64,000 nucleotides of DNA. Origin: an uncultured Chloroflexia bacterium (GTDB lineage: Bacteria; Chloroflexota; Limnocylindria; Limnocylindrales; CSP1-4). Under the pieces are notes generated by a model. The model was not told the origin of the DNA and did no database searches. It worked only from the letters and a program-made list of their open reading frames with translations. Position numbers and translations under genes: made by a program. Shown in pieces: positions 1 to 35,295 of the stretch; the first letter of the stretch is position 1, and each line of letters begins with the position of its first letter. The stretch lies in NCBI GenBank assembly GCA_963813335.1, contig CAWEYL010000006.1:90185-154184 (forward strand), given 5' to 3'.

Positions 1-228
1 AGGGTGTGTCACCGGTGGCGTCGGCTTCGGCTACCGCGGCTCCAGCCGATGTGGGTCCGTCGGATGCGGGTCTGTCACCGCTCACGCTCGTGATCGCGGC
101 CGTCCTCGTGATCTTGATCGTCGTCGTGGCGCTCTTCCTGATCCCGGCCCGGCGCGACTCGAAGGGCGACCGGACGGGCTGACCTTCGTCCGGTTTCGCA
201 TCCGAAACCCGCTGCTATCCTCGGGGGC

Positions 229-996
229 ATGCTCGACGGCGGTTCCGACGGGGGTGCGCGAACGGGCCCGTATGGCTCGACGGGCTACGGCGTGGGCGCC
301 CCGCGGATCCTCCTGGTCGACGACGACCCGGACCTGCTGGTGCTGCTGGCCGACCAGCTGCGCAACGACGGGTATCTCGTCACGACGGCACGGGACGGGG
401 TCGAGGCCGTGCGTCGGCTGGAGACAGCGTGGCCGGATCTCCTGCTGATCGACATGATGATGCCCCGCCGCGACGGGCTGTCCCTCGCGCGCGAGGTCAA
501 GGCGATGGCCGACCTGCCGATCATCGTGCTGTCCGCCATCGACGCCGGGGACTCCAAGGCCGACCTCCTCGACGAGGTGGCCGAGGACTACATCACCAAG
601 CCCTACCACTATCCCGAGCTGCGGGCCCGCATCAACCGGGTCCTGCGCCGGCTCGGCGACAAGGTGCCGCGAAGGAGCCTGGTCCTGGGACCGAATCTGA
701 CGCTCGAGCTGCATCGCCGCGAGGCGACCGTCGGCGGCGAGACCGTCAAGCTGACCCCGACCGAGTCGCGCCTGCTCTACGCGCTGGCCGCGAACCTCGG
801 GATCACGGTCTCGACCGACACGCTGCTGGTCCGCGGCTGGGCGGAGACCGAGGACGCCGACCCGTCCTACGTCTGGGTCACGATGCGCCGGCTCCGCCAG
901 AAGCTGGAAGTGGACCCCAACAAGCCGGCGCACCTGCTGACGGTCCGCGGCATCGGGTACCGGCTCGTCGCCACGGAGGCGCCGGGCGGTGTCTGA
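229..996 (+). CDS. OmpR/KdpE-family response regulator (REC + winged helix)
   Basis: ILLVDDD, DLLLIDMMMP, DYITKPY receiver motifs; LTPTE...LRQKLE...TVRGIGY wHTH. Confidence 0.93.
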   Translation: MLDGGSDGGARTGPYGSTGYGVGAPRILLVDDDPDLLVLLADQLRNDGYLVTTARDGVEAVRRLETAWPDLLLIDMMMPRRDGLSLAREVKAMADLPIIVLSAIDAGDSKADLLDEVAEDYITKPYHYPELRARINRVLRRLGDKVPRRSLVLGPNLTLELHRREATVGGETVKLTPTESRLLYALAANLGITVSTDTLLVRGWAETEDADPSYVWVTMRRLRQKLEVDPNKPAHLLTVRGIGYRLVATEAPGGV

Positions 997-2554
997 GGAG
1001 CGCGGCTCGGGCGCGTCCTCGTCGCCGGTCCTCAGCGGGCCCGCGGTCCCGCCGGCGGCCAGCATCACCGGCGTGTCGGCCGTGGGGGTGCCGGTCCAGG
1101 CGATCCCGACGCGCAGCTCGCGGTTCGCCTTCCGCACGCGGCTGACGCTGGCGCTCCTCGCGAGCGCGATCCTGCCGCTCGCGGTCTTCTGCATCGTCGG
1201 GCTCCTGATCGTCCTGGTGCTGATCCAGGGGCCGCTCGACCCGACGATCGCGCGGCTGCTGCTGTTCGCCCTGGCCATCGTGATCACCCTGGCGATCATC
1301 GGGTCGTACCTGCTGGTCGAGGACCTGACCGCGCCGCTGCGCGGGTTCGCGCGGGCGGTCGACCGGGTGTCCGCGGGCGACCTGTCGCACCCGATCCACA
1401 TCGCCGGCGACGACGAGCTGGCCCACCTGGCCGAGAGCCACAACCGGCTGGCGGCCGATCTGCTGCGGCGCAACCAGGAGCTGGGGCGGATCCTCCAGGC
1501 GATCGAGGCGGTCTCGCCACGGGACGGGGTCCAGTTCCTGGCCTCACGGGCAGCCGATGACGCGAAAGCCGCGTTCGGGATGATCGACGCAGCCGTCTAC
1601 CTGGGCAACCCCGCCCATATCCCGATCATGGATGCGGTCCCCGGGGAGTCGCGGCCGTTGCGGGCCGTGCTCCGGGCGGGCGGCGAGGAACTGGGCGTGC
1701 TGTTCGGGCGACTGCCCGCGACCCGGTCGTGGGAGCGCGCCGACGGCGACCTGCTGGGGCTGTTCGCGAGCCACGTCGCGGTCGCGATCCGCAACGCCCA
1801 GCTGTTCACCCAGGTCGAGGAGCAGAACGCGCAGCTCATCGAGCTGGATGCGGCGAAGGACGAGTTCCTCCGCGGCGTCAGCCACAACCTCCAGACGCCG
1901 CTGACCTCGATCCGCGCCCATGCCGAGCAGCTGGGCGAGGACCGGCCGGACCGCCGGCTCGGGATCATCGCGGAGCAGTCGGAGCGGCTCTCGCGGATGG
2001 TCCGGCAGCTGCTGACGGTGACCCGGCTGGAGTCCGGGGCCTTCAAGCCGAAGGCCGATGTCGTCGCGCTGGGCGGACGGGTGAAGAAGGCGTGGGAGGC
2101 GCTCGGCGCCGACGGCGTCGCGTTCACCCTCGAGGACCGCTCCGATGGCTGGCTGGCGATCGCCGACGCGGACCAGCTCGACCAGGTGCTGTGGGCGCTG
2201 CTCGACAACGCCGTGAAGTACGGGGAGCGTCGGCCGGTGTCGGTGGAGGTCATCGCGATCGTCGCGTCGCCCGACGTGTCACAGCTGCGGGTCACGATCA
2301 CCGACGCCGGGCCGGGCGTGTCGGAGGCCGATCGCGAGCTGCTGTTCGGGCGGTTCCAGCGGGGCACGCAGCCGGTGGGCGACGCCGTCGGGGCCGGCCT
2401 CGAGGGGACGGGGCTGGAGGGGTCGGGCCTCGGGCTCTACGTGTCGCGCGAGCTGTGCCGGGCGATGGACGGGGACCTGGTGCTCGAGCCGCCGGTGGCG
2501 GGCCAGGGGGCGTCGTTCAGCATCTACCTGCCGGGCGAGCCCGCCACGGAATAG
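989..2554 (+). CDS. Sensor histidine kinase (2 TM, HAMP, GAF-like, HisKA, HATPase)
   Basis: H-box VSHNLQTPLTSI, N-box LLDNAVKY, DAGPGV and GSGLGL G-boxes; overlaps the RR stop. Confidence 0.92.
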   Translation: MSEERGSGASSSPVLSGPAVPPAASITGVSAVGVPVQAIPTRSSRFAFRTRLTLALLASAILPLAVFCIVGLLIVLVLIQGPLDPTIARLLLFALAIVITLAIIGSYLLVEDLTAPLRGFARAVDRVSAGDLSHPIHIAGDDELAHLAESHNRLAADLLRRNQELGRILQAIEAVSPRDGVQFLASRAADDAKAAFGMIDAAVYLGNPAHIPIMDAVPGESRPLRAVLRAGGEELGVLFGRLPATRSWERADGDLLGLFASHVAVAIRNAQLFTQVEEQNAQLIELDAAKDEFLRGVSHNLQTPLTSIRAHAEQLGEDRPDRRLGIIAEQSERLSRMVRQLLTVTRLESGAFKPKADVVALGGRVKKAWEALGADGVAFTLEDRSDGWLAIADADQLDQVLWALLDNAVKYGERRPVSVEVIAIVASPDVSQLRVTITDAGPGVSEADRELLFGRFQRGTQPVGDAVGAGLEGTGLEGSGLGLYVSRELCRAMDGDLVLEPPVAGQGASFSIYLPGEPATE

Positions 2555-3354
2555 GTCTCCGGGCGGCGGTTCGCGAGCGCCGGGATCTGCCGGCGGACCG
2601 CGGCGACCCGGTCGAGGTCCAGCTCGGCGCGGATGATCCCGACGGTGTCGGCGGCCTGTGCGACCACCGTCCCCCACGGGTCGATGACCATGCTCCGGCC
2701 GTAGGCGGGCGCGCGTCCGCCGCCGGTCTGCGCGGGCGCGAGGACGTAGGCGCCGTTCTCGATCGCGCGAGCGCGGAGCAGCACCTCCCAGTGGTCGCGG
2801 CCGGTGCGCTCGGTGAAGTTGGCGGGGACCGTCAGGATCTCGGCGCCGGCCAGCGCGAGCGTCCGGTACAGCTCCGGGAAGCGGACGTCGTAGCAGATGG
2901 TCAGGCCGAGGGTGATGCCGTCCACAACGGCGGTCACGGCCGCGTCGCCGGCGCTCACGCGCGCGGACTCCGTGTCGGCCGGTCCCCGGTCGACGGCGAC
3001 ATCGAACAGGTGGATCTTGCGGTAGGTGGCGCAGATGTCGCCATTGGGGTCGAGGAGGACGCTCGTGTTGAAGGGGCGGTCCGGGTCGGCCGAGGCTTCG
3101 GCCAGGCTGCCGACGAGGATCCACGTCCCGTGGCGGCGCGCGACCTCGGCGAACGCGTCCGTGTGCTCGCCGGGGACCGGGCGCGCGCTGGCGCGGAAGC
3201 CCGCGTCCGGCCCGCGGTATTGCAGGTACTCGGGGAGGGCCACCAGGCGTGTGCCGCCGGCGGCGGCTTCGGCGGCCAGGGCGGTGGCGCGCTCGATGTT
3301 GGCATCGACGTCGTCGGTGGCGTCCAGCTGGACGAGCGCCACGGAAAGCTTCAT
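2524..3354 (-). CDS. Carbon-nitrogen hydrolase (Nit1-like amidase)
   Basis: LPEY, YRKIHLFD, ICYDVRFPEL triad motifs; ARAIENGAYV; start set at MKLSVALVQ. Confidence 0.92.
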   Translation of the reverse strand: MKLSVALVQLDATDDVDANIERATALAAEAAAGGTRLVALPEYLQYRGPDAGFRASARPVPGEHTDAFAEVARRHGTWILVGSLAEASADPDRPFNTSVLLDPNGDICATYRKIHLFDVAVDRGPADTESARVSAGDAAVTAVVDGITLGLTICYDVRFPELYRTLALAGAEILTVPANFTERTGRDHWEVLLRARAIENGAYVLAPAQTGGGRAPAYGRSMVIDPWGTVVAQAADTVGIIRAELDLDRVAAVRRQIPALANRRPETYSVAGSPGR

Positions 3355-3439
3355 GCGGTCATCGTAGGGGGTCGCGGTGGGCGAGCGCGCGTGGCGTGCG
3401 GGGTCGGGTGGCGCCCGCCAGGGCTCGCCCATCCGCCGT

Positions 3440-3902
3440 TATGCACGTTTCTCCAGGGGGACACCCTCCGATTCGCGTATGCACCTCGGCTGCATATCCG
3501 GCTGGGATGTTCGGCGTCTGCCGTCAGTTCCCGCCCTGGACCGGCCCTGGCCCGCCAGGTGGGCATCGGCGACCAATGATCACGCAGCCGGCACCCTCGC
3601 TATGCATCCCAGGGTGCATTGCAGGGCGGGTTGGCGATGAGGACAAGCCCAAAGCGTCGATCGTGCCCGCCCGGTGAGCCAGCGCGGCAGGGTTCGGTCC
3701 CGTGACGGCGTCGACTCGTCGCGGATGCCCGTGGAGCGGGCCTCCGGTGTCGCGGGCGCGCCTGGCCCGATCCCGAGGCGACCGGTGGGCCTACGGTGCC
3801 GCGGGCACTCCTGGCCCGAGCTCGAGGCGACCCGCGGGCCTCCGATATGCATCCGAGGTGCATACCGATTCTGAAAGCCACCGCCCCTGCGAAACGTGCA
3901 TA
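3440..3902. repeat. Intergenic ~60-bp imperfect inverted repeat pair (3440-3498 / 3844-3902) with a third TATGCA..TGCAT palindrome at 3601-3619
   Basis: tatgcacgtttc...gtatgcacctcggctgcatatc versus the reverse complement of gatatgcatccgaggtgcatac...gaaacgtgcata. Confidence 0.75.
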
Positions 3903-24080: not shown

Positions 24081-26900
24081 GTGGGCGCGGTCAGGGTCCC
24101 AGCCGATGTCATCGGACGTCAGGTCGAGCTTGCAGCCGTCGACCGGTTCGTCGAGCGGCTCCGGCGCGGCCCGGCGAGCCTGGTCATCCACGGTGAGGCC
24201 GGGATCGGCAAGACCGCGATCTGGCGAGCCGCAGTCGAGCGCGCGCAGGCGAGCGGCGCGGTCGTCCTTCGATCGGCACCGGCCGAATCCGAGGGCCAGC
24301 TGACCCTCGGCGGGCTCACGGACCTCCTGTCGGAGGTCAGCACCGATCGGATGGCGGCGCTCCCCGCGGTCCAGCGCCATGCCCTGGAGATCGCGGTCCT
24401 TCGGACCGAACCATCCGGTCAGCTTCCGGACCAGCGGACGCTGTCCGTGGCGACCACGACGCTGATCCAGCAGCTTGCCGACGAGGCCCGGCTCGTCATC
24501 GCGATCGACGACGCGCAGTGGGTCGACGAGGCCTCGCGCACGATCCTGGCGTATGCCGTCCGGCGCCTCGCGGACCGGACCGCGGGGATCCTGCTGGCCG
24601 TGCGCGGCGATCCGACCCCCTCGACGCTGGAGCTCGCCGCGGGCGTCCCGGACGATGCGCGGGACTCGGTGCGGCTCGGGCCGATGCCGCTCGCCGCCCT
24701 GCACCAGCTCTTCATGGCCCGCTTCGGCCGATCGTTCCCGCGCCTCGTGCTCGTCCGCATCGAGGAGGCCTCCGGCGGCAACCCGTTCTATGCACTCGAG
24801 ATCGCACGGACGCTCGCCACAGCGGAGCCGGTCGTGCGGCCGGGTGATCCCCTGCCGATCCCGGCGACCCTCGGTGCGCTCGTCGAGGCGCGGATCGGTG
24901 CCTTGCCGTCGTCGACCCGGTCGGCGCTGTTGCTGACGGCCGTGGCGGCCGAGCCGACCCTCGACACCCTTCGTCGCGTCGACCCCGACGCCGCGTCGGC
25001 CCTCGGATCGGCCTTCGAGGCGGGCGTCATCGCGATGGACCGCCGGTCCATCCGGTTCACGCACCCGCTCCTGGCGCATGCGGTGATCGGCCTGGCGACA
25101 CCGGCCGAGGTCCGCCGCGCCCATGCCTCGCTGGCCCGGGCGGCGACGTCCGACGACGTTCGGGGGCGTCACCTGGGGGGCGCGACCGAGGGCCGCGATG
25201 CGCGCGTCGCCGCGGCGCTCGAGGCGGCAGCCGGAGCCGCTCGGGACCGCGGCGCGACCATCGACGCCGCGTCCCTCTTCGAGCGGGCGAGCGACCTCAC
25301 GCCCGAGGAATCCGGCGACGAGGCCCTTCGCCGGGCGACGTCGGCCGCGGAATGCCTCTTCATCGACGTGTCGGAGATGGTCCAGGCGGACGCCATCCTC
25401 GACGCCGCGATCTCCGTGGCCGCGCCCGGCCCGACGCGCGCCGAGGCGCTCAGCCTCCGGGCCCTCATCCGCTACTACCACGGCCAGACCCCGGCGGCGG
25501 TCCGGCTTGGCGAGCAGGCGATCGACGAGGCGGGAGACGACCCGATCCGGCGCGCCAGGATCCTCGGCCGGGTCGCGTTCCTGGTCATGCAGGTCGATCT
25601 CGAGCGAGGCAGTGCCCTGGTGGCGGAGGCCATGGGGCTTCTCGAGACGGTCGATGGGACGACGCCCGTCGACCCCGACCTCCTGGCGAACGTGCTCCTC
25701 CTGCACGCGACCTCCGAGCTGGGGCTCGTCCGCGGCTACCTCGCCGACGAGATCGCCCGCGGGACCGCCTTGATCAGCGAAGGTGGTCGCACATGGGAAC
25801 ACGACGGCGCCGACGGGATCGCCTACGGTCTCGCGCGCCAGCTCGACGACGTCGATCGGGCGATCGAGATGACGGAGCGACTCATCCGGGCCAAGTCCGG
25901 CCCGGGCGGGGACGACCCGTTCAACCTCGTTTCGCTCTCGGGCCTGCAGGTCTTCCGCGGCGACCTGGCGGCGGCCCGGTCGACGGCCGACGCGGCGCTC
26001 GAGGGTTACGCCCGTGAGGGCGCCGACGTCTTCCCGTCATGGCGGCTGCGCGGGGTCGCCCTGGTCGCCGCGTACCTGGGCCATGTCGACGAAGCCCGGC
26101 GACTGGCCGGCGAGGGACTGGAGCTCGCGGTCGCGAGCGGGGACCTCGCTCTCGAGGTCTATCACCGCCACATCCTCGGGTTCGTCTCCTTGTCGGTCGG
26201 CGAGGTTCAGGACGCGGACGTCCAGCTGACGATGGCCGCCCGGGCGGCGGAGGCCAGCGGCACTCGTCACCCGGGGCGGTTCAAGCTGGACGGCGACCGC
26301 CTCGAGGCCGCCCTGGCGGTCGGCGACACGGACCGTGCCGAGCGGATCGTGGCGTGGCTCGAGCATGCCGGCGACGTCGCGCCGACCCCGTGGACCCTCG
26401 CGATCGGCGCGCGGGGTCGCGGCCTGCTCGACGCGGCGAACGGCGACCTCGACGCGGCCCTGCGGTCTCTGCAGGGAGCCCTGGCCGAGCACGAGCGCCT
26501 GCCGATGCCGTTCGAGCGCGCCAGGACGCTGCTCGCCATCGGTCAGGTCCATCGACGCCGGAAGGAGAAGCGGCTCGCCGACGAGCGATTCCGCGAGGCC
26601 CTGGACAGCTTCGAAACGATCGGCACACCGCTGTGGGCGGACCGGGCGAGGGCGGAGCGGGCGCGCGTCGGCCTCCGGCCGCGTGCCCCCGAGGATCTGA
26701 CCGAGACGGAGCGACGTGTCGCCGAACTCGCCGCCATCGGGCTGTCCACCCGAGAGATCGCGGAACGGGTGTTCCTGGCGCCGAAGACGGTCGGCAACGT
26801 TCTCGGACGAGTGTACGAGAAGCTGGGCATCCATTCGCGGGCCGAGCTCGGCGCGCGGATGGGCGGCAGCGTCGCGCCCGAGGGCCTTGGCCCGGACTGA
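24081..26900 (+). CDS. Large AAA(STAND)-LuxR transcriptional regulator (MalT/LAL-like)
   Basis: GEAGIGKT, IDDAQWVD, SGGNPFYALE, FTHPLL, LTETERRVAELAAIG...VYEKLGIHSRAEL. Confidence 0.92.
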   Translation: MGAVRVPADVIGRQVELAAVDRFVERLRRGPASLVIHGEAGIGKTAIWRAAVERAQASGAVVLRSAPAESEGQLTLGGLTDLLSEVSTDRMAALPAVQRHALEIAVLRTEPSGQLPDQRTLSVATTTLIQQLADEARLVIAIDDAQWVDEASRTILAYAVRRLADRTAGILLAVRGDPTPSTLELAAGVPDDARDSVRLGPMPLAALHQLFMARFGRSFPRLVLVRIEEASGGNPFYALEIARTLATAEPVVRPGDPLPIPATLGALVEARIGALPSSTRSALLLTAVAAEPTLDTLRRVDPDAASALGSAFEAGVIAMDRRSIRFTHPLLAHAVIGLATPAEVRRAHASLARAATSDDVRGRHLGGATEGRDARVAAALEAAAGAARDRGATIDAASLFERASDLTPEESGDEALRRATSAAECLFIDVSEMVQADAILDAAISVAAPGPTRAEALSLRALIRYYHGQTPAAVRLGEQAIDEAGDDPIRRARILGRVAFLVMQVDLERGSALVAEAMGLLETVDGTTPVDPDLLANVLLLHATSELGLVRGYLADEIARGTALISEGGRTWEHDGADGIAYGLARQLDDVDRAIEMTERLIRAKSGPGGDDPFNLVSLSGLQVFRGDLAAARSTADAALEGYAREGADVFPSWRLRGVALVAAYLGHVDEARRLAGEGLELAVASGDLALEVYHRHILGFVSLSVGEVQDADVQLTMAARAAEASGTRHPGRFKLDGDRLEAALAVGDTDRAERIVAWLEHAGDVAPTPWTLAIGARGRGLLDAANGDLDAALRSLQGALAEHERLPMPFERARTLLAIGQVHRRRKEKRLADERFREALDSFETIGTPLWADRARAERARVGLRPRAPEDLTETERRVAELAAIGLSTREIAERVFLAPKTVGNVLGRVYEKLGIHSRAELGARMGGSVAPEGLGPD

Positions 26901-27347: not shown

Positions 27348-28052
27348 ATGCAGAGACGCCGGTCGAGCCCGCGCTTCGCCGCCATCGTCGCGATGTCCGT
27401 CGTCGTCGCGGCGTGCGGCTCGGGGCCGAACGGGACCGGTCCGGCATCGACGGATGGAGGGTCGACCGTGGCGACACAGCGTTCGACCTCGCCTGCGCCG
27501 GCGACTGCCGGCACCTCGAGCACGCCCTCGACGAGCACGGGCTCGTCCGCGACGCCGGCGTCGCCGTCGCCGACCGAGGCACCCAGGGCCACCCCGACCC
27601 CGGGTCCGTTCACCCTGACATCGTCGGCCTTCGCCGAGGGCGGGCCGATCCCGACGGCCCAGACCTGCGACGGCGCCGATCGGTCACCAGCGCTCGCGTG
27701 GACGGGCGTGCCGGCCGGTACAGGCGCCCTCGTCCTCGTCGTCGACGACCCGGACGCCCGCGACTTCGTGCATTGGCTCGTCATCGACCTGCCGGCGGAC
27801 GCCACGGGCTCGCTGCCCGCGAACATCGCGGCCGGGACCTCACCGCCGCAGCAGGGTCGCAACGACTTCGGGCGCGTCGGCTGGGGCGGGCCGTGTCCGC
27901 CGTCGGGCACCCACCACTATCGGTTCACGCTGTCGGCACTGGCGGCGCCGCTCGGCCTGGGCGGTCACCCGGACGGCGCCGCGGTCCGGGCGGCGCTGCG
28001 GGCCGCGACGATCATCAAGCAGGCCCGCCTCACCGGGACCTACCACCGCTGA
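27348..28052 (+). CDS. YbhB/YbcL (PEBP) family lipoprotein
   Basis: VAAC lipobox; LTSSAF, SPALAW, DPDA, HW, GRNDFG, GPCPP..HHYRF. Confidence 0.9.
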   Translation: MQRRRSSPRFAAIVAMSVVVAACGSGPNGTGPASTDGGSTVATQRSTSPAPATAGTSSTPSTSTGSSATPASPSPTEAPRATPTPGPFTLTSSAFAEGGPIPTAQTCDGADRSPALAWTGVPAGTGALVLVVDDPDARDFVHWLVIDLPADATGSLPANIAAGTSPPQQGRNDFGRVGWGGPCPPSGTHHYRFTLSALAAPLGLGGHPDGAAVRAALRAATIIKQARLTGTYHR

Positions 28053-28123
28053 CCGTCGGCGCCGACTGCAGCCGATCGGCGGCACTGCTCTCCTCGGAGG
28101 GCATCGGGTATCCTGTGGCCCGC

Positions 28124-28198
28124 GCCGACATAGCTCAGCGGTAGAGCAGCTGTTTCGTAAACAGCAGGTCCTCGGTTCAAATCCGAGTGTCGGCTCCA
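28124..28198 (+). tRNA. tRNA-Thr (CGT)
   Basis: GCCGACA acceptor stem, TAGCTCAGCGGTAGAGC D-arm, gctgt-TTCGTAA-acagc anticodon arm, GGTTCAAATCC T-arm, CCA end. Confidence 0.96.
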
Positions 28199-28338
28199 CT
28201 CCCCCTCTCCGAATCGCCCGGTGAGGCCGCGAATCTCGTGGCATGCATCTGCCACTTCGCTGACGGCCTGCCGCGTGCCCCTTGGCCCGACGCTCGGGAC
28301 ATTCGACTCTGGCCCGGGACTGGGTCGGGGAGCAAGGT

Positions 28339-29061
28339 GTGACCGTGACGACGGCCATCGATGCGATCGCCGAGCCCGGGCGTGGCCCGGAACCCGGGCT
28401 GCCGTCCGCGCTGCCCTACGGGCCGGTCATGACGCGGCTCCTGCGGCCACTCCAGCACGGGTTCCTCGTCCTGAACCGCGGGTTCATGGCGCCGCTGGCG
28501 CATCGCCGACTCGGCTGGCTGGTCGGCAGTCCGCTGACGGGGCACATCATGGTTCTCCGGACGCACGGACGGCGGTCCGGCCTTGTCCGCGAGGCGCCGC
28601 TCGGATACGTCATTCGCGACGGCGCCGTCTACTGCGTGGCTGGCTACGGGACGCAGACGCCGTGGTTCCGAAACCTCGTCGACGACCCGGCCGTCGAGGT
28701 CCTCCTGCCGACTCGCCGCTTCCGGGGGGTCGCGACGCCGGTCGACGCCCCAGACGAGTGGCTGGCGGCCTACCGGGCGCTCATCGCGAGCTTCGGGCTC
28801 CTCGGGCGGGCGGTCGTCGGCGACATCGACCGGGTCGCCGATGCCGAGCTCCTCGCGCGGCATCGCGTTCTGCCGATCGTCCGCATCCGGCCCGCCGACG
28901 GTGGGCCGCCGCTGACCCCGGGTCCCTTCGATCCCGGCGGCCGTGGCTGGCTGATCCCGTGGGCGGCGATGATCGTCTCGCTGATCGCCGTACGCCGACT
29001 CGCGACCGCCAGACGGCTGACCAAGCGGCAGGCGTCAAGAGCGGATGCGCAGGCTGGATGA
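28339..29061 (+). CDS. Deazaflavin (F420)-dependent nitroreductase-family oxidoreductase
   Basis: VLRTHGRRSGLVREAPL, WFRNLVDDPAVEV; C-terminal TM; start approximate. Confidence 0.8.
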   Translation: MTVTTAIDAIAEPGRGPEPGLPSALPYGPVMTRLLRPLQHGFLVLNRGFMAPLAHRRLGWLVGSPLTGHIMVLRTHGRRSGLVREAPLGYVIRDGAVYCVAGYGTQTPWFRNLVDDPAVEVLLPTRRFRGVATPVDAPDEWLAAYRALIASFGLLGRAVVGDIDRVADAELLARHRVLPIVRIRPADGGPPLTPGPFDPGGRGWLIPWAAMIVSLIAVRRLATARRLTKRQASRADAQAG

Positions 29062-30096
29062 GCACGCCAGGCAACCGATGGCACCAGTGGGCGGAGCCGC
29101 TGCCGTGGCTGCTCGAACCTGCGACGCCAGCCGTGCGGCACGTGGCCCTGCGGGACCTGCTCGATCGATCAGCCGATGATCCCGAGGTCGTCGCGGCGCT
29201 CGACGCTGCGATGCGCACTGACCCGATCGCCTCGATCCTCGCCGCGCAATCCCCCGACGGCTATTGGGAGAAGCCCGGACCCGGCTACGCGACCAAGTAC
29301 CGCGGCACTGTCTGGCAGTTGATGTTCCTCGACCAGCTCGGTGCCGATCCGGCCGATGAGCGCATCCAGCGGGCCTGCACCTACGTCCTCGAGCATGCAG
29401 TGACCTCGAACGGCGGGTTCGGCGCATCGGGGCGCCTCGGCGAGCACCCGCCCCCGCCGTCCGCGGTCATCCACTGCCTCAACGGCAACCTGCTCCGGGC
29501 ACTCATCGGCTTCGGCTGCCTCGACGATCCGCGAGTCCAGGGCGCCGATCGAGTGGGAGGCACGATCGATCACCGGCGAGGGCGTCGAGCGCTGGTACGC
29601 GTCGGGGACGAGCGGTCCGGGTTTCGCGTGCGCCGTAAATGACGAGCAGCCGTGCGCGTGGGGCGCCGTCAAGGGGCTGCTGGGCCTGGCCCGCATCCCG
29701 CCACTCCAGCGATCGCCGCTGGTCGAGCGCGCGCTGGAGGCGGGGGCGGCCTTCCTCCTCAGCCGCGATCCGGCCGACGCCGATTACCCGATGGGCTGGG
29801 GCAACACCCGGCCCAACGGCTCGTGGTTCAAGCTCGGCTTCCCGTCGGGCTACGTGACCGACGTGCTCCAGAACCTCGAGGCGCTCGTCGAACTAGGGCA
29901 TGGCGGCGATCCGCGCCTTTCCGGTGCGCTCGAGTGGCTCGTCGCCAGGCAGGACGCTCGCGGACGCTGGCGCAACGAGTACGCCTACAACGGCAAGACG
30001 TGGATCGACATCGAGCGCCAGGGCCAGCCGAGCAAGTGGGTCACCCTGCGCGCTGGCCGCGTGCTCCGTCACGTCGAGCAGCGTCCGCATCCCTGA
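29058..30096 (+). CDS. Prenyltransferase/squalene-oxidase-repeat alpha/alpha-barrel protein; +1 frameshift near 29547
   Basis: AQSPDGYW, KYRGTVWQL, CLNGNLL, then IEWEAR...PCAWGAVK...FPSGYVTDVLQNL...RQDARGRW...PSKWVTLRA in the shifted frame. Confidence 0.72.
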
Positions 30097-30144
30097 CTCC
30101 GCGCGAGTCTTGATTCAGATCCGAGTGTCGGCTCCACTCCCCTG

Positions 30145-33100
30145 CTACCCGCTCCCTTGGAGCGTGAAGGCGTAGGCGCCAGTCGCCGTCTGGTTCCCGT
30201 GGACGTGGATGGTGTACGTGCCGCCCTGGCTCGCGACGCCGCTGAGATCGTGGCAGGTGCCCGTCCCGGCGACGGGCTGGCCGTCCGGGCGCAGCAGCTC
30301 CCAGAGCAGCCCGTCGACGCAGGCGCCCGTGGCGTGGACCGTGATCGTCGACCCAGCCGCCGCATCGAACGTGTAGAGCGCCTCCTGCCCGATCTGGCCC
30401 ACCGACCCGGCAACCGGGTGACCGACCGAGATCGACGTCGTGGTCGTTGCGGGCACAGGGAGGATCTGGAACGCATAGGCGCCGGTGGTCGCGCGGTCGC
30501 CGTGGATCCGAACCGTGTAGGTTCCCGCGGCCGGAAGCTCCACCCGCCCGAGGTCATTGCAGGTCTGCGTGTCACCGATGCGTGTTCCGGTGGGGCTGAG
30601 CAGCGTCCACAACAGGTCGCTCGTGCAATCGCCGACGCGTTGCGCATAGACCACCTGGTGGGCGGACCCATCGAAGGTGTAGTCCGCCCATTGGCCGGCG
30701 GCGGAGAGCGACCCGTTCACGCCCTGCTCGAGCGAGATCGGCGTCACGACGGTGGCCGGCACCGCTAGCAGGGAGAACCCATACGCGCCCATCGCGTTCC
30801 GATCGGCGTTGACCCGGACCGTGTACGTCCCCTCCGACGGCAGCACCTGGCGCAGGAGGTCGTTGCACACGACACTGCCGTCGAGCGGGCCGCCATCCGG
30901 ACCGAGCAGCTCCCATCGAAGCGACCCCGAGCAGGTCGCCTTCGACTGGAGGTACACGGTTTCATCCTTGACGCCCGTGAAGGTGTAGTCGTCCGTCTGG
31001 TTGGAGCTGGCGATCGACCCGGTGACGGTCTGCCCGATCGAGATGGGAGTGACGTCCGCCGGCGTCGACGTCGTCGGCGCGACGACCGCACCCGAGGCCG
31101 CGACGGCGGCCGTGTCGGCCGCGTACGAGGCATCGCCGGTCATCCCGACGTCAAGCGTGCAGTCATCGAGCAGCGGCTCGTTTCTGACGCCGACGGCTCG
31201 GCAGGTTGCCTCCGCCGTCGCGCGGACATCGGGGCTCAGCCCCGCGATCGTCGCCTCCGCGGAGGGGATGTCGGGCTTCTGGAATGTCGCGGTACTCTCG
31301 CCGGGCTGGTAATCGAACAACGACTCGCGCTGGCCGACCCGCCAGCTGTCGCCGAACTGCTGGTAGAGCTTTGTCGCGAACATCGGGTCCGATCGATCGA
31401 GCACCGTGCCGTCGCGGCCCATCAGGTCGTTCGCGGCGTTGCCGTCGTCGCTGCCGCCGAGACCGCGCAACGAACCGCGCTCCGCGGCACTCGGGGCGTA
31501 TGCATAGCTGAGCGTCCGGCCGTCGCGGAACAGCCAAAGCCTGCTCCCGTCGGGCCAAGTCACCGTCACGCTGGCCCCGTGCCGTTCGAGCGAGCCGCCG
31601 TGCGGGAGGCGTTCCGCGATGTCGGCGGCCTCGACCGCCTTCCCATCGACGATCAGGAAGTCCGGCTCGGCCGCATAGATCCCGACTCGATCACCGACGA
31701 CGTTCATGGCGACCGCCGTGGTGAAGGTGATCAAGGTCCCGCCGAACGTCGGCTCCTGCCGGGCCTGGATCTCCAGGCTGTCGTCGCCCGATCTCGCCAT
31801 GACGAACTCACCTCCGGCCTGGAGGTCGTAGTGGGTCCCGTCCGCGGTCAAGACGTGGACGTCGCCCCACACGATGTTGCAGGGATGCGCGACGGTTCCG
31901 ACGCACGACTGGCCGTTCGGTCCGACGCAGGTGAGTCCCTTGCAGCCGGTGGGCCCAAGGTTGCATGGCACGTCGGCCGTGCCCGTACAGGCCGTCCCGT
32001 TCGGCCCGGTGCAATCGACGCCGGTGCACCCGGTTCCACCGCCACCGTCGCCGGGCGGAGGCTCCGGCGGGTCCGGCGGGCAGATGTTGATCTTGTGCGT
32101 GTACGTCAGGCCGATCGCGAAGGCGGGGGCGCCCAGGAGCGCCGTGCCGCCCTCGATGAGGAGGTCGCCGGCCCCGCAGGTACCGATGAGGCCAGTCGGG
32201 TCCGTGCGGTTCACCGGGTCGCCGCTGACGAAGCGATAGAGGTTCGCGTCTCCGCCCGCGAACCGGATCGGGTCCGGGCTCGTCCAACGGCCCGTCGTCG
32301 GGTCGTAGTCGCGGGCGCCCAGGTGGACGAGCCCCGTGTCCGCGTCGAGGAGGCCGCCGCCGAACCCGAACGGGATGAACCCCGGATGGGTCTCGTGCGT
32401 GACTCGACCCCAGGCGTCGTACTGGATCGCGTCCGCGACGGCTCCCGATCCCGAGGAGATCACGAGCCGAGGGCTCCCGAGTGAGTCGGTCACCACCCGA
32501 TAGGTCGTATCGCCGCGTTCGAGGAGCGCCAGATGCCCGAGGTGGTCATAGGCGAATTTGGAGCTGACCGCGCCGGCTCCGTCGGTCTCGGCCACGATCT
32601 GTCCGGCGGGGTCGTAGAGGTAGCCGACGACCCTTGATCCGGCGACCTGCCGCCCGACACGCCGGCCGTCGGCGTCCACGAGGTAGGTGATCGTCCTGCC
32701 GTCGGCGGGGGTCGCGGTTCGGAGACGCCCGAGCTCATCGAACGTGAACCGCGTCGTCCCGTCGGGCGCGTCGATCGTGGCGAGGCTGCCGCCGGCCGCC
32801 CACGTCTCCGTCGCGGATCCCCAGCGGGTCTGGCGGTTGCGCGCGTCGTACGCGCCCCGGATCGTGTCGCTCGGTCCCGCCATTCGGATCCGGTTGCCGG
32901 CCGCGTCGTAGGTATCCGTCTCGATGGTCCGGCCGTCGACGGTGACCCTCGCCAGGCGGTCGGCCGCGTCGTATGCATACGTGGTCTTCGTCGTCCGGCT
33001 GCCGGTCGTTTCGGCGATCCCGACGATGCGACCGAGCGCATCGACCGAGTAGCGGTCGTCGAGGATCGTCGTCCGTCCATTCGGGCCGGGCGTCGGACCT

Positions 33101-35295
33101 ACGCTCGTCGTCGACCGGATCAGCGCGCCGTTCGCGTCGTACTGCTGATCGGTCGTCACCGGGCCGACCGAGCTCGACGTGACCTGACCACTCACGGGAT
33201 CCCGGGTCAGCGACAGCTCCGAGATCCCGATCAGGGCGCCCCCGTCGTCGTAGCGGAAAGCGTAGCCCGGCTGCTCGTCGACGGTCACGTCCGTCGCACG
33301 GCCGTTGGCGTCGATCGTGAGGGCCATGGAGCCCGTGACCGAGCCGGACCAGGCGAGACGCTGCGCCTGGCTGCCGGCGTATCCATAACTGATCGTCACG
33401 CCGTCCGGATCCGCCGCGGAGGCCCTCAGACCGGTCTTCGGGTCCCACGCTACGCTCGACGCCCCGGCCGCGGTGGTCCACCCGGAGAGGCGGCCCGACG
33501 CGTCGTACGTCAGCTTGATCTCGTCCGTTCCCGCGCCGGTGACCGAGCTCGGGCGGCCGTCGGCGTCGTAGGTGGTGGTCGCCGCTGAGGCATCTCCCGC
33601 CACCGATGGCGGGAGATACGCCGTGGGCCGGCCCGCGGCGCTGTAGCCGAGGGTGAACCCGAGCCCGCCCGCGGGCTGGATGAGCGTCGGGCGACCGAGG
33701 GCGTCGAACGTCGTGATCGTCGTCGAGCCGTCCGCCGCCGCGGTCGTGGCGGCCTTGCCGCGGGCATCGACGCCGAGATTCTTGGTGCTGCCATCCGGAC
33801 GGGTCACGGACTCGATCCCCGTCGCCGGGTCGTAGGCGAATCGCGTCGTCTGCGCGGTCGCACCAGTGCCGACGGTCATCGTTGCCTGCCGGCCGAGCGG
33901 GTCATAGGTCGCCGCGATCGGCGGCTGCCCCGGAAGCTGTTCGAACACGAGCCGGCCTGACTCGTCGAAGGTGTCCGTTGTCCGTCGCCCGGCGGGATCC
34001 ACGATGATCGCGGTGCGAGACGATGGGTCGAACGTGCGGACGGTCGCGGCGTCGTTCGTCGTGATGGTCACGGAACCAGCCAGCGCGTCGGGCACCCCTC
34101 CGACCGGTTCGAGCGCCTGGACGACGGTCGTCGTCGACGTCACGCCGTCTGGCCGTTTGGTCTCGTCCGGCGTGAGCACCGGCGCGGCCATCCCCCAGCC
34201 CGTGCTCGCCACGGCGCCGATCGTGCGCATGACCCCGTCGGGTGTCGCGAGGGTCCGCGACCCGTCCGCCTCGGTGGTCTCGACGTTGGCCGTGCCGTCC
34301 GGCGCCGTGAGGGTCCGACGAATCCCGCCGGCAACGCCTTCGACCTGATAGGTCGTCGTCCGTCCCAGCGCGGTCGTGGCCCGGATCTCGACCCCATCGG
34401 CCGTCTCGCTTCGGGCCTGTTGCACGGTCACGCCGTCGGCGTCGCTGGAGGCCTCGAGGCGGCCATCCTGGTCGTACGTGAACCGCGTCACGCCGCCGAG
34501 CGCATCGGTCTCGCTGGTGACGAGGCCGCCCGGCGCCCAATGGAGGCTCATCGTCGAACCGCCCGGATCCGTGACTGCCGCGAGGTGGCCATCGCCGTCG
34601 AGAGCGAGCGTCGTGAGCGCGCCGTCGATTCCCGCAAGGGATTGCGGCGTGCCGTCGCTCGCGCGCCGCACCTCGACATGGACCGGTAGCCCGCGAACGG
34701 TGCCGCTGACGCTCGAGAGCCGACCGGCAGCGTCGTAGGCGATCGTAAGGAGCGGGAGGCCCAGGAACCCGTCGACGGTCCGGACGTGGCGGCCGGCCGC
34801 GTCGAGGACGTCTGCGAACGACCCGTCGAAGGACGGGACCGCGCTCTCGCCCGACGCGGCCTGAACCGGATCGACGAACCGCCAGGTGCCGTCCCCCGCG
34901 ATCAGGGCCCGATCCGCCGCCCGGTAGCGGTCCACCACGTTGAGCGACCACCCACCGAGACCGAGCCCGCTCGCATCCCAGCCGGCTCGATCGGTTCGAC
35001 CCGGGGCCCATTGACTCGACCAGGTGAGAGCCAGACCGGAGTCGACGATCGGGATCGAGAGGAACGCAGCCTGCTGGTCACAACCGATGAGGCCGGCCGG
35101 ATCGCATTCGTCGATCGCCGTGGGTCCGTGACCGGCGGCTTCGCTCGGGCTGGCCGTTGGCGCGAGATCCGAGGTCGTGGTCGGCGACGGTGACGGCGGC
35201 GGCGTGGGCGCGCAGGCCGCCGTGACGAGCTCGACGATGAGCACGACCATCGCGAGGCGATGGCGCCTGGTTCGGCTCGGCGTACAGTCGGACAA
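30145..35295 (-). CDS. Lipoprotein YD/RHS-repeat (teneurin-like) protein with C-terminal Cys-rich, VWD and 3 PPC-like domains
   Basis: LVTAAC lipobox; GLGGWSL; many YD repeats; RHS core ARDYDPTTGRWTSPDP...DPVNRTDPTG; WGDVH..DG..YDLQ..GEF VWD; three ~100-aa C-terminal repeats. Confidence 0.88.
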   Translation of the reverse strand: MSDCTPSRTRRHRLAMVVLIVELVTAACAPTPPPSPSPTTTSDLAPTASPSEAAGHGPTAIDECDPAGLIGCDQQAAFLSIPIVDSGLALTWSSQWAPGRTDRAGWDASGLGLGGWSLNVVDRYRAADRALIAGDGTWRFVDPVQAASGESAVPSFDGSFADVLDAAGRHVRTVDGFLGLPLLTIAYDAAGRLSSVSGTVRGLPVHVEVRRASDGTPQSLAGIDGALTTLALDGDGHLAAVTDPGGSTMSLHWAPGGLVTSETDALGGVTRFTYDQDGRLEASSDADGVTVQQARSETADGVEIRATTALGRTTTYQVEGVAGGIRRTLTAPDGTANVETTEADGSRTLATPDGVMRTIGAVASTGWGMAAPVLTPDETKRPDGVTSTTTVVQALEPVGGVPDALAGSVTITTNDAATVRTFDPSSRTAIIVDPAGRRTTDTFDESGRLVFEQLPGQPPIAATYDPLGRQATMTVGTGATAQTTRFAYDPATGIESVTRPDGSTKNLGVDARGKAATTAAADGSTTITTFDALGRPTLIQPAGGLGFTLGYSAAGRPTAYLPPSVAGDASAATTTYDADGRPSSVTGAGTDEIKLTYDASGRLSGWTTAAGASSVAWDPKTGLRASAADPDGVTISYGYAGSQAQRLAWSGSVTGSMALTIDANGRATDVTVDEQPGYAFRYDDGGALIGISELSLTRDPVSGQVTSSSVGPVTTDQQYDANGALIRSTTSVGPTPGPNGRTTILDDRYSVDALGRIVGIAETTGSRTTKTTYAYDAADRLARVTVDGRTIETDTYDAAGNRIRMAGPSDTIRGAYDARNRQTRWGSATETWAAGGSLATIDAPDGTTRFTFDELGRLRTATPADGRTITYLVDADGRRVGRQVAGSRVVGYLYDPAGQIVAETDGAGAVSSKFAYDHLGHLALLERGDTTYRVVTDSLGSPRLVISSGSGAVADAIQYDAWGRVTHETHPGFIPFGFGGGLLDADTGLVHLGARDYDPTTGRWTSPDPIRFAGGDANLYRFVSGDPVNRTDPTGLIGTCGAGDLLIEGGTALLGAPAFAIGLTYTHKINICPPDPPEPPPGDGGGGTGCTGVDCTGPNGTACTGTADVPCNLGPTGCKGLTCVGPNGQSCVGTVAHPCNIVWGDVHVLTADGTHYDLQAGGEFVMARSGDDSLEIQARQEPTFGGTLITFTTAVAMNVVGDRVGIYAAEPDFLIVDGKAVEAADIAERLPHGGSLERHGASVTVTWPDGSRLWLFRDGRTLSYAYAPSAAERGSLRGLGGSDDGNAANDLMGRDGTVLDRSDPMFATKLYQQFGDSWRVGQRESLFDYQPGESTATFQKPDIPSAEATIAGLSPDVRATAEATCRAVGVRNEPLLDDCTLDVGMTGDASYAADTAAVAASGAVVAPTTSTPADVTPISIGQTVTGSIASSNQTDDYTFTGVKDETVYLQSKATCSGSLRWELLGPDGGPLDGSVVCNDLLRQVLPSEGTYTVRVNADRNAMGAYGFSLLAVPATVVTPISLEQGVNGSLSAAGQWADYTFDGSAHQVVYAQRVGDCTSDLLWTLLSPTGTRIGDTQTCNDLGRVELPAAGTYTVRIHGDRATTGAYAFQILPVPATTTTSISVGHPVAGSVGQIGQEALYTFDAAAGSTITVHATGACVDGLLWELLRPDGQPVAGTGTCHDLSGVASQGGTYTIHVHGNQTATGAYAFTLQGSG

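Follow-up and report, generated by a model that had tools for sequence, protein, structure and literature searches.

A propeller-less teneurin-type YD shell with a conserved VWD/PPC tail in an uncultured Chloroflexia bacterium, a candidate surface scaffold

What a teneurin-type YD shell can be, and what it can carry, when it has no NHL propeller is the question raised by one gene in a 64,000-nucleotide stretch of DNA (the window) from an uncultured soil bacterium of the Chloroflexia (GenBank assembly GCA_963813335.1, contig CAWEYL010000006.1, positions 90,185 to 154,184 of the forward strand). A preliminary description had read positions 32191..35295 as a minimal, lipid-anchored teneurin-like protein that ends in its Rhs core and from which the FN-plug body and the propeller have been deleted. 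The gene is longer than that. It is a single intact open reading frame (ORF) of 1716 amino acids (aa) on the minus strand (30145..35295, TTG start), and its codon-position GC of 0.66/0.58/0.88 is that of real genes in this 70% GC genome. The interval first described corresponds to residues 1-1035 only, one residue short of the end of the Rhs core motif DPTGL, and the frame runs on without a stop for 680 further residues that comprise a VWD domain, a helical module and three PPC domains. The domain architecture of this protein, called here the Rhs-VWD protein, is well supported, and from it we infer a function: the evidence suggests a surface adhesion protein, not a toxin.

The sequence blocks on which the earlier reading relied are all present in the translation: Cys29 after a hydrophobic stretch, the IPIVDSGLALTWSS and LGLGGWSLNVVDRY blocks, LIAGDG, PSFDGS...GRHVRTVD, the YD repeats and an Rhs core ending in DPTGL at residue 1036. 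Against Pfam, the whole protein matches RHS_repeat (2e-37), TEN_YD-shell (1.1e-25; 90.4 bits against a cut-off of 50), VWD and PPC, and NCBIfam TIGR03696 (Rhs-associated core) matches at 959-1036 (5.6e-22). No EGF, TTR, FN-plug, NHL, ABD/Tox-GHH or TIP domain is found by Pfam. Two AlphaFold2 (AF2) models were used. Model 1 covers residues 55-1141 (45-row alignment, mean predicted local distance difference test (pLDDT) 84.8, predicted template modelling score 0.83); it is confident as far as residue 1005 or so, and from residue 1037, at the cleavage site, it becomes unreliable. Model 2 covers residues 1086-1716 (pLDDT 86.5). A family search seeded on the first 500 residues lists 120 proteins, and the end of the core was located in all 121 proteins including the query. 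The NHL-less set discussed below (n = 93) consists of the first 91 matches, P0097 and the query, without NHL and FN-plug Pfam matches, and the other 28 listed proteins are shell relatives, most of which have FN-plug, TTR and NHL families. Relatives of the Rhs-VWD protein are named 'RHS repeat-associated core domain-containing protein' in public databases.

Among proteins of known structure, the shell is closest to BiTLP of Bacillus inaquosorum (9ifo/9pt5), which is described together with a survey of bacterial teneurin-like proteins (TLPs) in 139 genomes from six phyla (Nat Commun 2026; PMC13018210). In a phmmer search of all PDB sequences, BiTLP (9pt5, 9ifo) is matched at E 3e-91, animal teneurins at about 1e-33 to 1e-29 and the best type VI secretion system (T6SS) Rhs protein at 1e-29; with a profile of 84 relatives the corresponding values are 2e-183, about 1e-90 to 1e-80, and 2e-63. 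Foldseek with the AF2 model also places 9ifo_A first (E 4.5e-70, template modelling (TM) score 0.77), and the query-normalised TM scores are 0.66-0.79 for teneurins, 0.41-0.65 for T6SS Rhs proteins and 0.31-0.48 for Tc cocoons. The VIA superposition on 9ifo_A has Z 39.5 and a root-mean-square deviation (rmsd) of 2.0 Å over 930 residues (model 1..964 on chain 709..2129), and teneurins and T6SS Rhs proteins both reach Z 27-32, at larger rmsd or over fewer residues. Searches and model together support a shell of the teneurin/TLP type and not of the T6SS Rhs type, as had been proposed from the sequence blocks.

Each of the known systems shares a part of this layout. BiTLP and other TLPs have the same YD-shell subtype, homologous plug segments and, by motif position, the same Rhs core triad and cleavage motif, but they also have an FN-III body and NHL, TTR and TIP domains, which the Rhs-VWD protein lacks. 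The metazoan teneurins (6fb3, 6fay, 8r50; VIA Z 27.6-31.5 over some 920-970 residues) are alike in shell fold, in having the plug inside the shell and in having large C-terminal domains outside it. They are, however, type II membrane proteins with EGF, TTR, FN-III, NHL and ABD/Tox-GHH domains, and they have lost the triad and are uncleaved, whereas the Rhs-VWD protein has a predicted N-terminal lipid anchor, an intact triad and a VWD/PPC tail. T6SS Rhs proteins (7q97, 7pq5, 8h8a, 8qjc; VIA Z 26.8-31.8 with 692-863 residues aligned) and E. coli RhsA have RHS repeats, an Rhs core and a contiguous N-terminal plug, but the T6SS proteins differ in their weaker sequence matches (E 1e-29 and weaker) and lower Foldseek scores, and in a DUF6531 plug, PAAR/VgrG coupling and a toxin-immunity pair. 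The Tc TcB-TcC cocoons (4o9x, 4igl) share the YD-repeat cocoon and the Rhs core protease and differ in having two subunits, a propeller gate and an encapsulated ADP-ribosyltransferase.

The plug is kept in one piece. In hhalign, 84 family N-termini align to the FN-plug-to-NHL region of 17 NHL-bearing TLPs with a probability of 98.1% (E 1.1e-13), over 87 columns that are interrupted by a single gap of about 111 columns, the FN-III body. On BiTLP, the family profile matches residues 718-758 (weakly, at -3.4 bits), 886-924 (15.3 bits) and 1246-2204 (the shell), and this search returns no counterpart of residues 759-885 (the FN-III body) or 925-1245 (NHL); the published boundaries are 673-928 for the FN-plug and 929-1255 for NHL (PMC13018210). 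Neither NHL nor TEN_NHL has a Pfam match in the Rhs-VWD protein, in which plug and shell are joined by about 10 residues. Jackson 2018 describes the teneurin plug as two pieces that sit together inside the shell, one of 44 aa inserted between FN-III strands one and two and the other a C-terminal extension of 38 aa; the two blocks kept here are about 44 and 38 aa long with about 5 residues between them. As judged from these alignments, the kept blocks correspond to the plug itself, and the FN-III sandwich and the propeller are what is missing. The expectation of a vestigial plug thus fails, because both retained blocks match the two pieces of the teneurin plug. The absence of the propeller is borne out by profile search, hhalign and Pfam alike, and the supposed loss of the FN-plug body holds for its FN-III part but not for the two plug segments.

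The AF2 model of shell and plug superposes on BiTLP from residue 709, inside its FN-plug (VIA), and therefore has the plug in the same place as the BiTLP plug, where it would seal the N-terminal mouth of the shell. Foldseek and VIA comparisons thus agree with the predicted YD shell without NHL and with BiTLP as its nearest structure, though not with a decayed plug. The homology of the plug emerged with profiles only, since a phmmer search with residues 55-173 singly against PDB returned nothing at E up to 10. Residues 29-250 alone, searched against Pfam at E up to 10, match RHS_repeat only, with no DUF6531 (PF20148), FN-plug or NHL and no PF24329, the last of which is matched in the listed protein P0093. 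An N-terminus closer to the DUF6531/T6SS plug had been named as the observation that would overturn a teneurin-type assignment. Against the E. coli RhsA N-terminus, however, the hhalign probability is 0.6%, compared with 98.1% for the TLP plug, and the sole alignment is contiguous and lies inside DUF6531 (RhsA 46-123). Two plug cysteines are nearly constant, C64 in 82/84 relatives and C72 in 83/84, and C64 aligns with C719 of BiTLP.

The Rhs core appears to keep its protease triad. In BiTLP the triad is R2111/D2116/D2140 and cleavage follows L2144 (PMC13018210); R1003, D1008, D1032 and L1036 were matched to these residues by their place in the shared core motif and not from an alignment. Among aligned relatives, R1003 is conserved in 80/84 and D1008 and D1032 in 84/84 each, and the chain is probably cut after L1036. 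The conservation of the triad argues that cleavage occurs and matters. In animal teneurins, by contrast, the protease triad is lost and there is no cleavage (PMC13018210). The second BiTLP cut, G723|S724, has no Ser at the corresponding position in the Rhs-VWD protein: in the family the Gly precedes, in most members, Tyr (42), Leu (18) or Phe (7), and Ser is not among the six commonest residues there.

What the shell carries is a large, folded tail. In model 2 a beta-sandwich is followed by a helical module and then by three more beta-sandwiches, with the VWD/C8-like part mostly above pLDDT 85 and the PPC part above 90. Pfam VWD scores 31.9 bits in the whole protein and 33.7 bits in the tail alone (cut-off 22.9), and Pfam PPC scores 28.2 bits in the tail alone but 24.4 bits, below its cut-off of 25.9, in the whole protein. 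With VIA, residues 1143 to about 1483 superpose on VWD-C8 of VWF D2 (Z 21.6, rmsd 2.8 Å, 228 aligned), and the D assemblies of MUC5AC, MUC2, MUC5B and FCGBP follow at Z 16-21, MUC5AC and MUC2 at about 20; the family profile matches FCGBP at E 7e-32. The helical module at 1276-1405 falls inside the aligned VWD-C8 range (model 58..398, Z 21.6), although it has no Pfam C8 match and contains two invariant Cys only. The last domains superpose on the collagen-binding domains of ColH/ColG at Z 11.4-12.2 and rmsd 2.3-2.4 Å, with 93-99 residues aligned.

The VWF, MUC2, MUC5AC and FCGBP D assemblies (VWD-C8-TIL) and RGM are thus alike in their superposable VWD sandwich and helical module and in an invariant motif His. 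The module described here differs in being bacterial, in being fused behind an Rhs core, in having neither C8 nor TIL by Pfam and in reading GDVH for GDPH, so that the acid-labile Asp-Pro bond is absent. The site varies among 84 relatives: Asp-Pro occurs in 30, Glu-Pro in 23, GDTH in 26, GDVH in 4 and GDIH in 1, with Pro before the His in 53/84 and the His itself invariant. A complex prediction with two copies of the VWD/C8-like module scored 0.00, which has no bearing either way on self-association.

Size separates this tail from the cargo of known TLPs. Beyond the cleavage motif, the 680 residues amount to 69.7 kDa and, at the standard protein volume constant of 1.21 Å3/Da, to about 84,000 Å3. 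The BiTLP cavity is 44,000 Å3 (PMC13018210), so the tail could not be encapsulated. The survey suggests that the shell cavity limits TLP C-terminal domains to about 15 kDa, and reports that almost all TLP genes have an immunity gene immediately after them (PMC13018210). Whereas such tails are polymorphic, encapsulated and accompanied by an immunity gene, that of the Rhs-VWD protein is conserved and has no immunity gene downstream.

Across the NHL-less family the tail is conserved and the linker in front of it is hypervariable. Tails are 477-974 aa long in 87 of the 93 members and 64, 84, 87, 147, 241 and 284 aa in the other six, compared with 67-198 aa in the 28 NHL-bearing TLPs. BLAST with segments of the query tail recovers the VWD domain in 89/93, the helical module in 88/93 and PPC domains (1-5 copies) in 78-82/93. 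Across phyla, plug and shell match the tail in their degree of conservation. Full-length members, by names and genome records, come from Chloroflexia, Limnocylindrales, Anaerolinea, Dormibacterota, Acidobacteriota, Gemmatimonadales, Pseudonocardiales, Acidimicrobiales and Gammaproteobacteria metagenome-assembled genomes (MAGs), amounting to some 90 protein clusters in at least six phyla (Gemmatimonadota and Actinomycetota among them), mostly from soil MAGs. Within its own class the gene is accessory and patchy. Full-length homologues are present in 3/121 genomes (G000, G068 and, with two copies, G086) and any match in 9/121, including an unpublished genome (G067) with a partial shell match only, and a search of five further genomes from its genus, 91-94% complete, did not recover the gene. 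The two G086 homologues (C6:10124-14944 and 28037-32761) each contain one in-frame TGA.

The direction of change between the two forms is not settled by their phylogeny. In a FastTree tree of 885 shell columns and 120 rows, rooted on E. coli RhsA by a single, long outgroup branch, one clade holds the 28 TLP-type shells (support 100) and another 90/91 NHL-less shells (support 91), with P0089 unresolved. Since neither clade lies within the other, the deletion of FN-III and NHL stated in the preliminary description is not shown. A contiguous plug, as in T6SS Rhs proteins, would also be consistent with FN-III and NHL having been inserted on the line to TLPs and teneurins. The reading as a streamlined protein that consists of the shell alone, stops at the Rhs core and derives from a teneurin-like ancestor by deletion of FN-plug body and propeller did anticipate the teneurin-type shell, the missing NHL and FN-III body and the lipobox. 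An ORF that continues for 680 aa refutes its shell-only part, as does a tail conserved in 89/93, and with clades that are mutually non-nested it is hardly credible as a whole. Two proteins of about 1300 aa, P0116 and P0120, lie inside the NHL-bearing clade, although their first 300 aa or so are unrelated; P0116 when scanned, and P0120 in the precomputed list only, have no NHL or FN-plug Pfam families, and they may represent independent loss or replacement of the propeller.

The N-terminus of the Rhs-VWD protein has an Arg-rich start, a 12-residue hydrophobic core and the sequence ...TAAC, followed by a Pro/Thr/Ser-rich stretch. For the family, a strict, PROSITE-like lipobox pattern was applied to the 74/93 members with a full N-terminus (at least 25 residues before the plug), 19/93 being too short to judge. 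It fits 54/74; a looser pattern alone fits 3/74, the query among these 3. A further 10/74 have a hydrophobic stretch without Cys, some of them resembling signal anchors, and 7/74 have neither, several of these being near misses. Membrane tethering is therefore a trait of the NHL-less family, as it is of some TLPs, which are surface-anchored by a signal peptide or as lipoproteins (PMC13018210). Lgt (PF01790, E 1.5e-33) and LspA (PF01252, E 1.2e-34) are encoded in the same genome, and the Rhs-VWD protein is itself likely to be tethered to the membrane. The lipobox claimed earlier is hence a hallmark of the family, although the query's own copy fits less well than most.

We lean slightly towards reading the Rhs-VWD protein as a self-cleaved cell-surface scaffold that displays a binding or adhesive VWD/C8-like/PPC module. 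The protein would be exported by the Sec pathway and probably lipid-anchored; a flexible Pro/Thr stalk would lead to the contiguous plug, which would close the N-terminal mouth of the shell, and the Rhs core would cut the chain after L1036. As far as is known, the chain after the core cleavage site starts inside the shell in every solved relative. BiTLP is such a case (PMC13018210). As the tail is too large for the cavity, the linker must leave the shell, and the shell of animal teneurins has an exit gap for the chain. The conserved 55-60 kDa unit of VWD/C8-like module and three PPC domains would then lie outside the shell, as do the C-terminal domains of animal teneurins, and be presented to a polymeric or cellular ligand. 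Once cut, this unit would have no hold on the shell other than its N-terminal segment lodged inside, and it might be released. Even numbers of Cys in the linker, found in 57/62 relatives with a delimited linker, fit an oxidising, extracytoplasmic location. Adhesion or matrix binding is favoured because the partners of the VWD module in other proteins are of adhesion or wall-binding types, none of them a toxin, and because there is no immunity gene. The analysis shows the order of the domains, their homologies, their conservation and the gene context; lipidation, cleavage, the external position of the tail and its adhesive function are what we infer from these features.

Those partners include WSC, OmpA, Big_1, CARDB, TSP_C, CarboxypepD_reg, propellers and zincins, and no toxin domain is found in 35 scanned proteins that carry the same VWD module, nor any toxin family in the tail by Pfam. 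In a library of 1.84 billion proteins, the VWD/C8-like module of the query has 4417 cluster representatives at E<=0.001 and 953 at 1e-30, and several of the proteins found carry up to 13 copies. By this measure of similarity the search shows such modules to be widespread, the library giving no organism names and hence no split between eukaryotes and prokaryotes. A second VWD protein is encoded in the same genome (L002, contig C1:47254-51294, ORF 1351..3492) and is 35% identical to residues 1116-1450. It has a true GDPH motif and a weak Pfam VWD score (16.7 bits), followed by a region without Pfam matches that looks repeat-like by eye. Upstream of that ORF, two coding-like frames follow one another (95.., 882..), one with an HExxH motif, which suggests one long gene with frame changes, or assembly errors. 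For bacterial VWD domains there is a precedent in the Lipocone paper (eLife 2025, PMC12419801), which describes zincin-vWD-Ig proteins, proposes a role in adhesion and calls a myxobacterial case the first bacterial vWD. These are likewise secreted multidomain proteins with a bacterial VWD domain, and the paper draws no link to Rhs or YD shells.

Several observations weigh against a displayed adhesin. The lipobox of the Rhs-VWD protein has Glu at -6 from the Cys and so fails the strict pattern and fits only the loose one. AF2 gives no confident path for residues 1037-1141, so that the exit from a plugged shell was not located, and the BiTLP shell shows no opening (PMC13018210). A permanently attached adhesin would have no need of so strictly conserved a triad. 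Four of the 93 relatives lack VWD, and two more have tails of less than 300 aa. P0076, P0085 and P0086, which have tails of 84-147 aa and no VWD, lie on contigs as long as 43-229 kb and may have genuinely short tails or be split genes. The linker is unalignable even to that of P0002, despite 72% identity overall and 89-91% in the PPC domains, and a collapse of similarity exactly at the cleavage motif recalls polymorphic toxins. Finally, the tail begins with a hydrophobic, Gly/Ala-rich stretch in 20/93 relatives including the query (KD(19) 1.61), a feature that recalls the membrane-active C-terminal domain of BiTLP.

It may be, then, that the hypervariable segment of 60-270 aa after the cleavage site is the encapsulated cargo of a polymorphic toxin (in the query a hydrophobic peptide that might act on membranes), and that VWD and PPC are its targeting or receptor-binding part. 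Similarity stops at DPTGL and returns at VWD, the triad is strictly conserved, and a hydrophobic Gly/Ala-rich tail start is also present in 10/28 NHL-bearing TLPs. The hydrophobic C-terminal domain of BiTLP permeabilises E. coli when exported (PMC13018210). Taken alone, the linker of the Rhs-VWD protein (9.9 kDa, about 12,000 Å3) would fit the cavity. The linkers themselves, however, are low-complexity and Pro/Gly/Cys-rich and match no Pfam family in the precomputed lists. From the cleavage site to the GDxH motif they span 60-267 aa (median 115.5, from the 62/93 members where the motif pattern matched). In BLAST, the first 49 residues after the cleavage site match the query alone among the 93, and the Cys-rich stretch matches in 10. 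A cargo continuous with an external module of 55-60 kDa would also be without precedent among the matched structures.

The gene neighbourhood bears on the same point. Downstream of the Rhs-VWD gene, plus-strand coding frames converge on its 3' end, and there is no co-oriented small gene after the ORF that could encode an immunity protein, in contrast to the immunity genes that follow almost all TLP genes. Nor does a small ORF recur downstream at 15 related loci: 5 have a convergent neighbour there, and at the others the neighbour varies in size and distance. Neither PAAR nor SpvB/TcB has a match in this 81%-complete genome, in which VgrG was not searched for, and no secretion-system or toxin families occur among the neighbours within 10 kb. 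The earlier statement that the locus has no T6SS or Tc partner and no adjacent immunity gene is upheld to this extent. A toxin is retained as an explanation because similarity breaks at the cleavage motif and because the tail start is hydrophobic, but we consider it unlikely.

Alternatively, the shell could be mainly a folding or export device. After self-cleavage the VWD/PPC fragment would be shed and act outside the cell as a soluble binding protein, the anchored shell having no further role. The conserved triad would suit such shedding, and the VWD/C8-like module does occur in many Rhs-free proteins, among them the second VWD protein of this genome and stand-alone copies in related genomes. 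A shell of 100 kDa would, however, be a costly leader; plug and shell are conserved across phyla as much as the tail; and a conserved lipid or transmembrane anchor is easier to understand for a tail that remains on the cell. Shedding is for these reasons distinctly improbable.

One possible tether for a cleaved but attached tail was considered, a disulphide between plug C64 or C72 and a Cys just past the cleavage site. Such a Cys lies within 6 residues of the site in 42/93 relatives, compared with 3/28 NHL-bearing TLPs. The tether is nevertheless rated unlikely, given that linker Cys are mostly even in number and that C64 and C72 can pair with each other; the model has low confidence in this region.

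If the surface scaffold is correct, the family could be taken further, as a bacterial precedent for the animal teneurin layout that retains Rhs self-cleavage, with a tether releasable by force or redox in the manner of the autoproteolytic GAIN/SEA domains, and with the contiguous plug as the ancestral state into which FN-III and NHL were later inserted. This wider proposal is speculative, and we regard it as rather doubtful.

The TLP survey describes the FN-plug/NHL/YD-shell superfold as invariant; its search required all three domains, which leaves the NHL-less family outside it (PMC13018210). The survey text does not mention Chloroflexota, von Willebrand domains or NHL-less forms (PMC13018210). 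In the literature, neither a fusion of VWD to an Rhs or YD shell nor an NHL-less TLP was found described, the supplementary tables of the survey not being covered. With no propeller, no FN-III body and a conserved tail of 55-95 kDa, the family departs from both the invariant superfold and the tail limit of about 15 kDa, and it is not a rare exception. It offers a natural minimal plug-plus-shell unit for structural work and a test case for how a chain leaves a plugged YD shell, which is also a question for animal teneurins, and as a sister group the NHL-less clade could help to root teneurin evolution. Its most distinctive feature is the VWD/C8-like/PPC tail, which the preliminary description had missed. 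Table 1 lists the parts of the gene.

Table 1. Parts of the Rhs-VWD gene, with their positions in the window and the evidence for each.
Feature	Position	Strand	Evidence
Signal peptide and lipobox, aa 1-29	35209..35295	-	TTG start, Arg-rich n-region, hydrophobic core, Cys29; translation and upstream sequence
Pro/Thr/Ser-rich stalk, aa 30-57	35125..35208	-	Composition; low-complexity stretches also follow the lipobox Cys in relatives
Contiguous plug, aa 58-140	34876..35124	-	Homologous to both plug segments of the TLP/teneurin FN-plug; AF2 pLDDT 82-95
YD-repeat shell, aa 141-958	32422..34875	-	Pfam RHS_repeat and TEN_YD-shell; AF2; BiTLP ranked first by Foldseek and VIA
Rhs-associated core, aa 959-1036	32188..32421	-	TIGR03696; R1003, D1008, D1032; predicted self-cleavage after L1036
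Hypervariable linker, aa 1037-1141	31873..32187	-	Hydrophobic Gly/Ala-rich stretch, Pro/Gly spacer, Cys-rich repeats (10 Cys); AF2 pLDDT <50
VWD beta-sandwich, aa 1142-1275, and C8-like helical module, aa 1276-1405	31081..31872	-	Pfam VWD, AF2, VIA; D-assembly-like unit
Three tandem PPC (collagenase collagen-binding domain-like) beta-sandwiches, aa 1406-1716	30148..31080	-	Pfam PPC, AF2 pLDDT >90, VIA

The Rhs-VWD gene is monocistronic. Upstream of it lies a divergent gene of 289 aa without Pfam matches, and within 10 kb are genes for a LuxR-type STAND regulator, a PEBP protein, an adenylate cyclase, a flavin monooxygenase, a carbonic anhydrase and an F420H2-dependent quinone reductase-like protein. 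When nine neighbours from the window were compared by tblastn with the 15 related loci, the LuxR-type regulator alone was shared. This AAA_16/TPR/LuxR-type STAND protein (24081..26900, plus strand) is encoded about 3 kb from the Rhs-VWD gene, and homologues lie within 6 kb of the Rhs-VWD gene at 4/15 loci (L011 1994-4783, L007 2742-5444, L013 2677-5385 and L004 4445-4888). Identity is 70% in a Chloroflexia MAG and 34-40% in Dormibacterota, in Acidobacteriaceae and in a second Chloroflexia MAG. Regulators of this kind are common, so that their proximity may be due to chance or synteny.

A tRNA-Thr gene (CGT) is located at 28124..28198 on the plus strand, 2 kb beyond the 3' end of the Rhs-VWD gene. 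A genomic island at this tRNA is possible; the gene was not recovered from the five congeneric genomes searched. Between the two, at 29043..30093 on the plus strand, are overlapping frames (about 29043-29639 and 29404-30093) that both have coding-type GC at third codon positions and no Pfam match, and that read as one protein with a frame change near 29400-29640.

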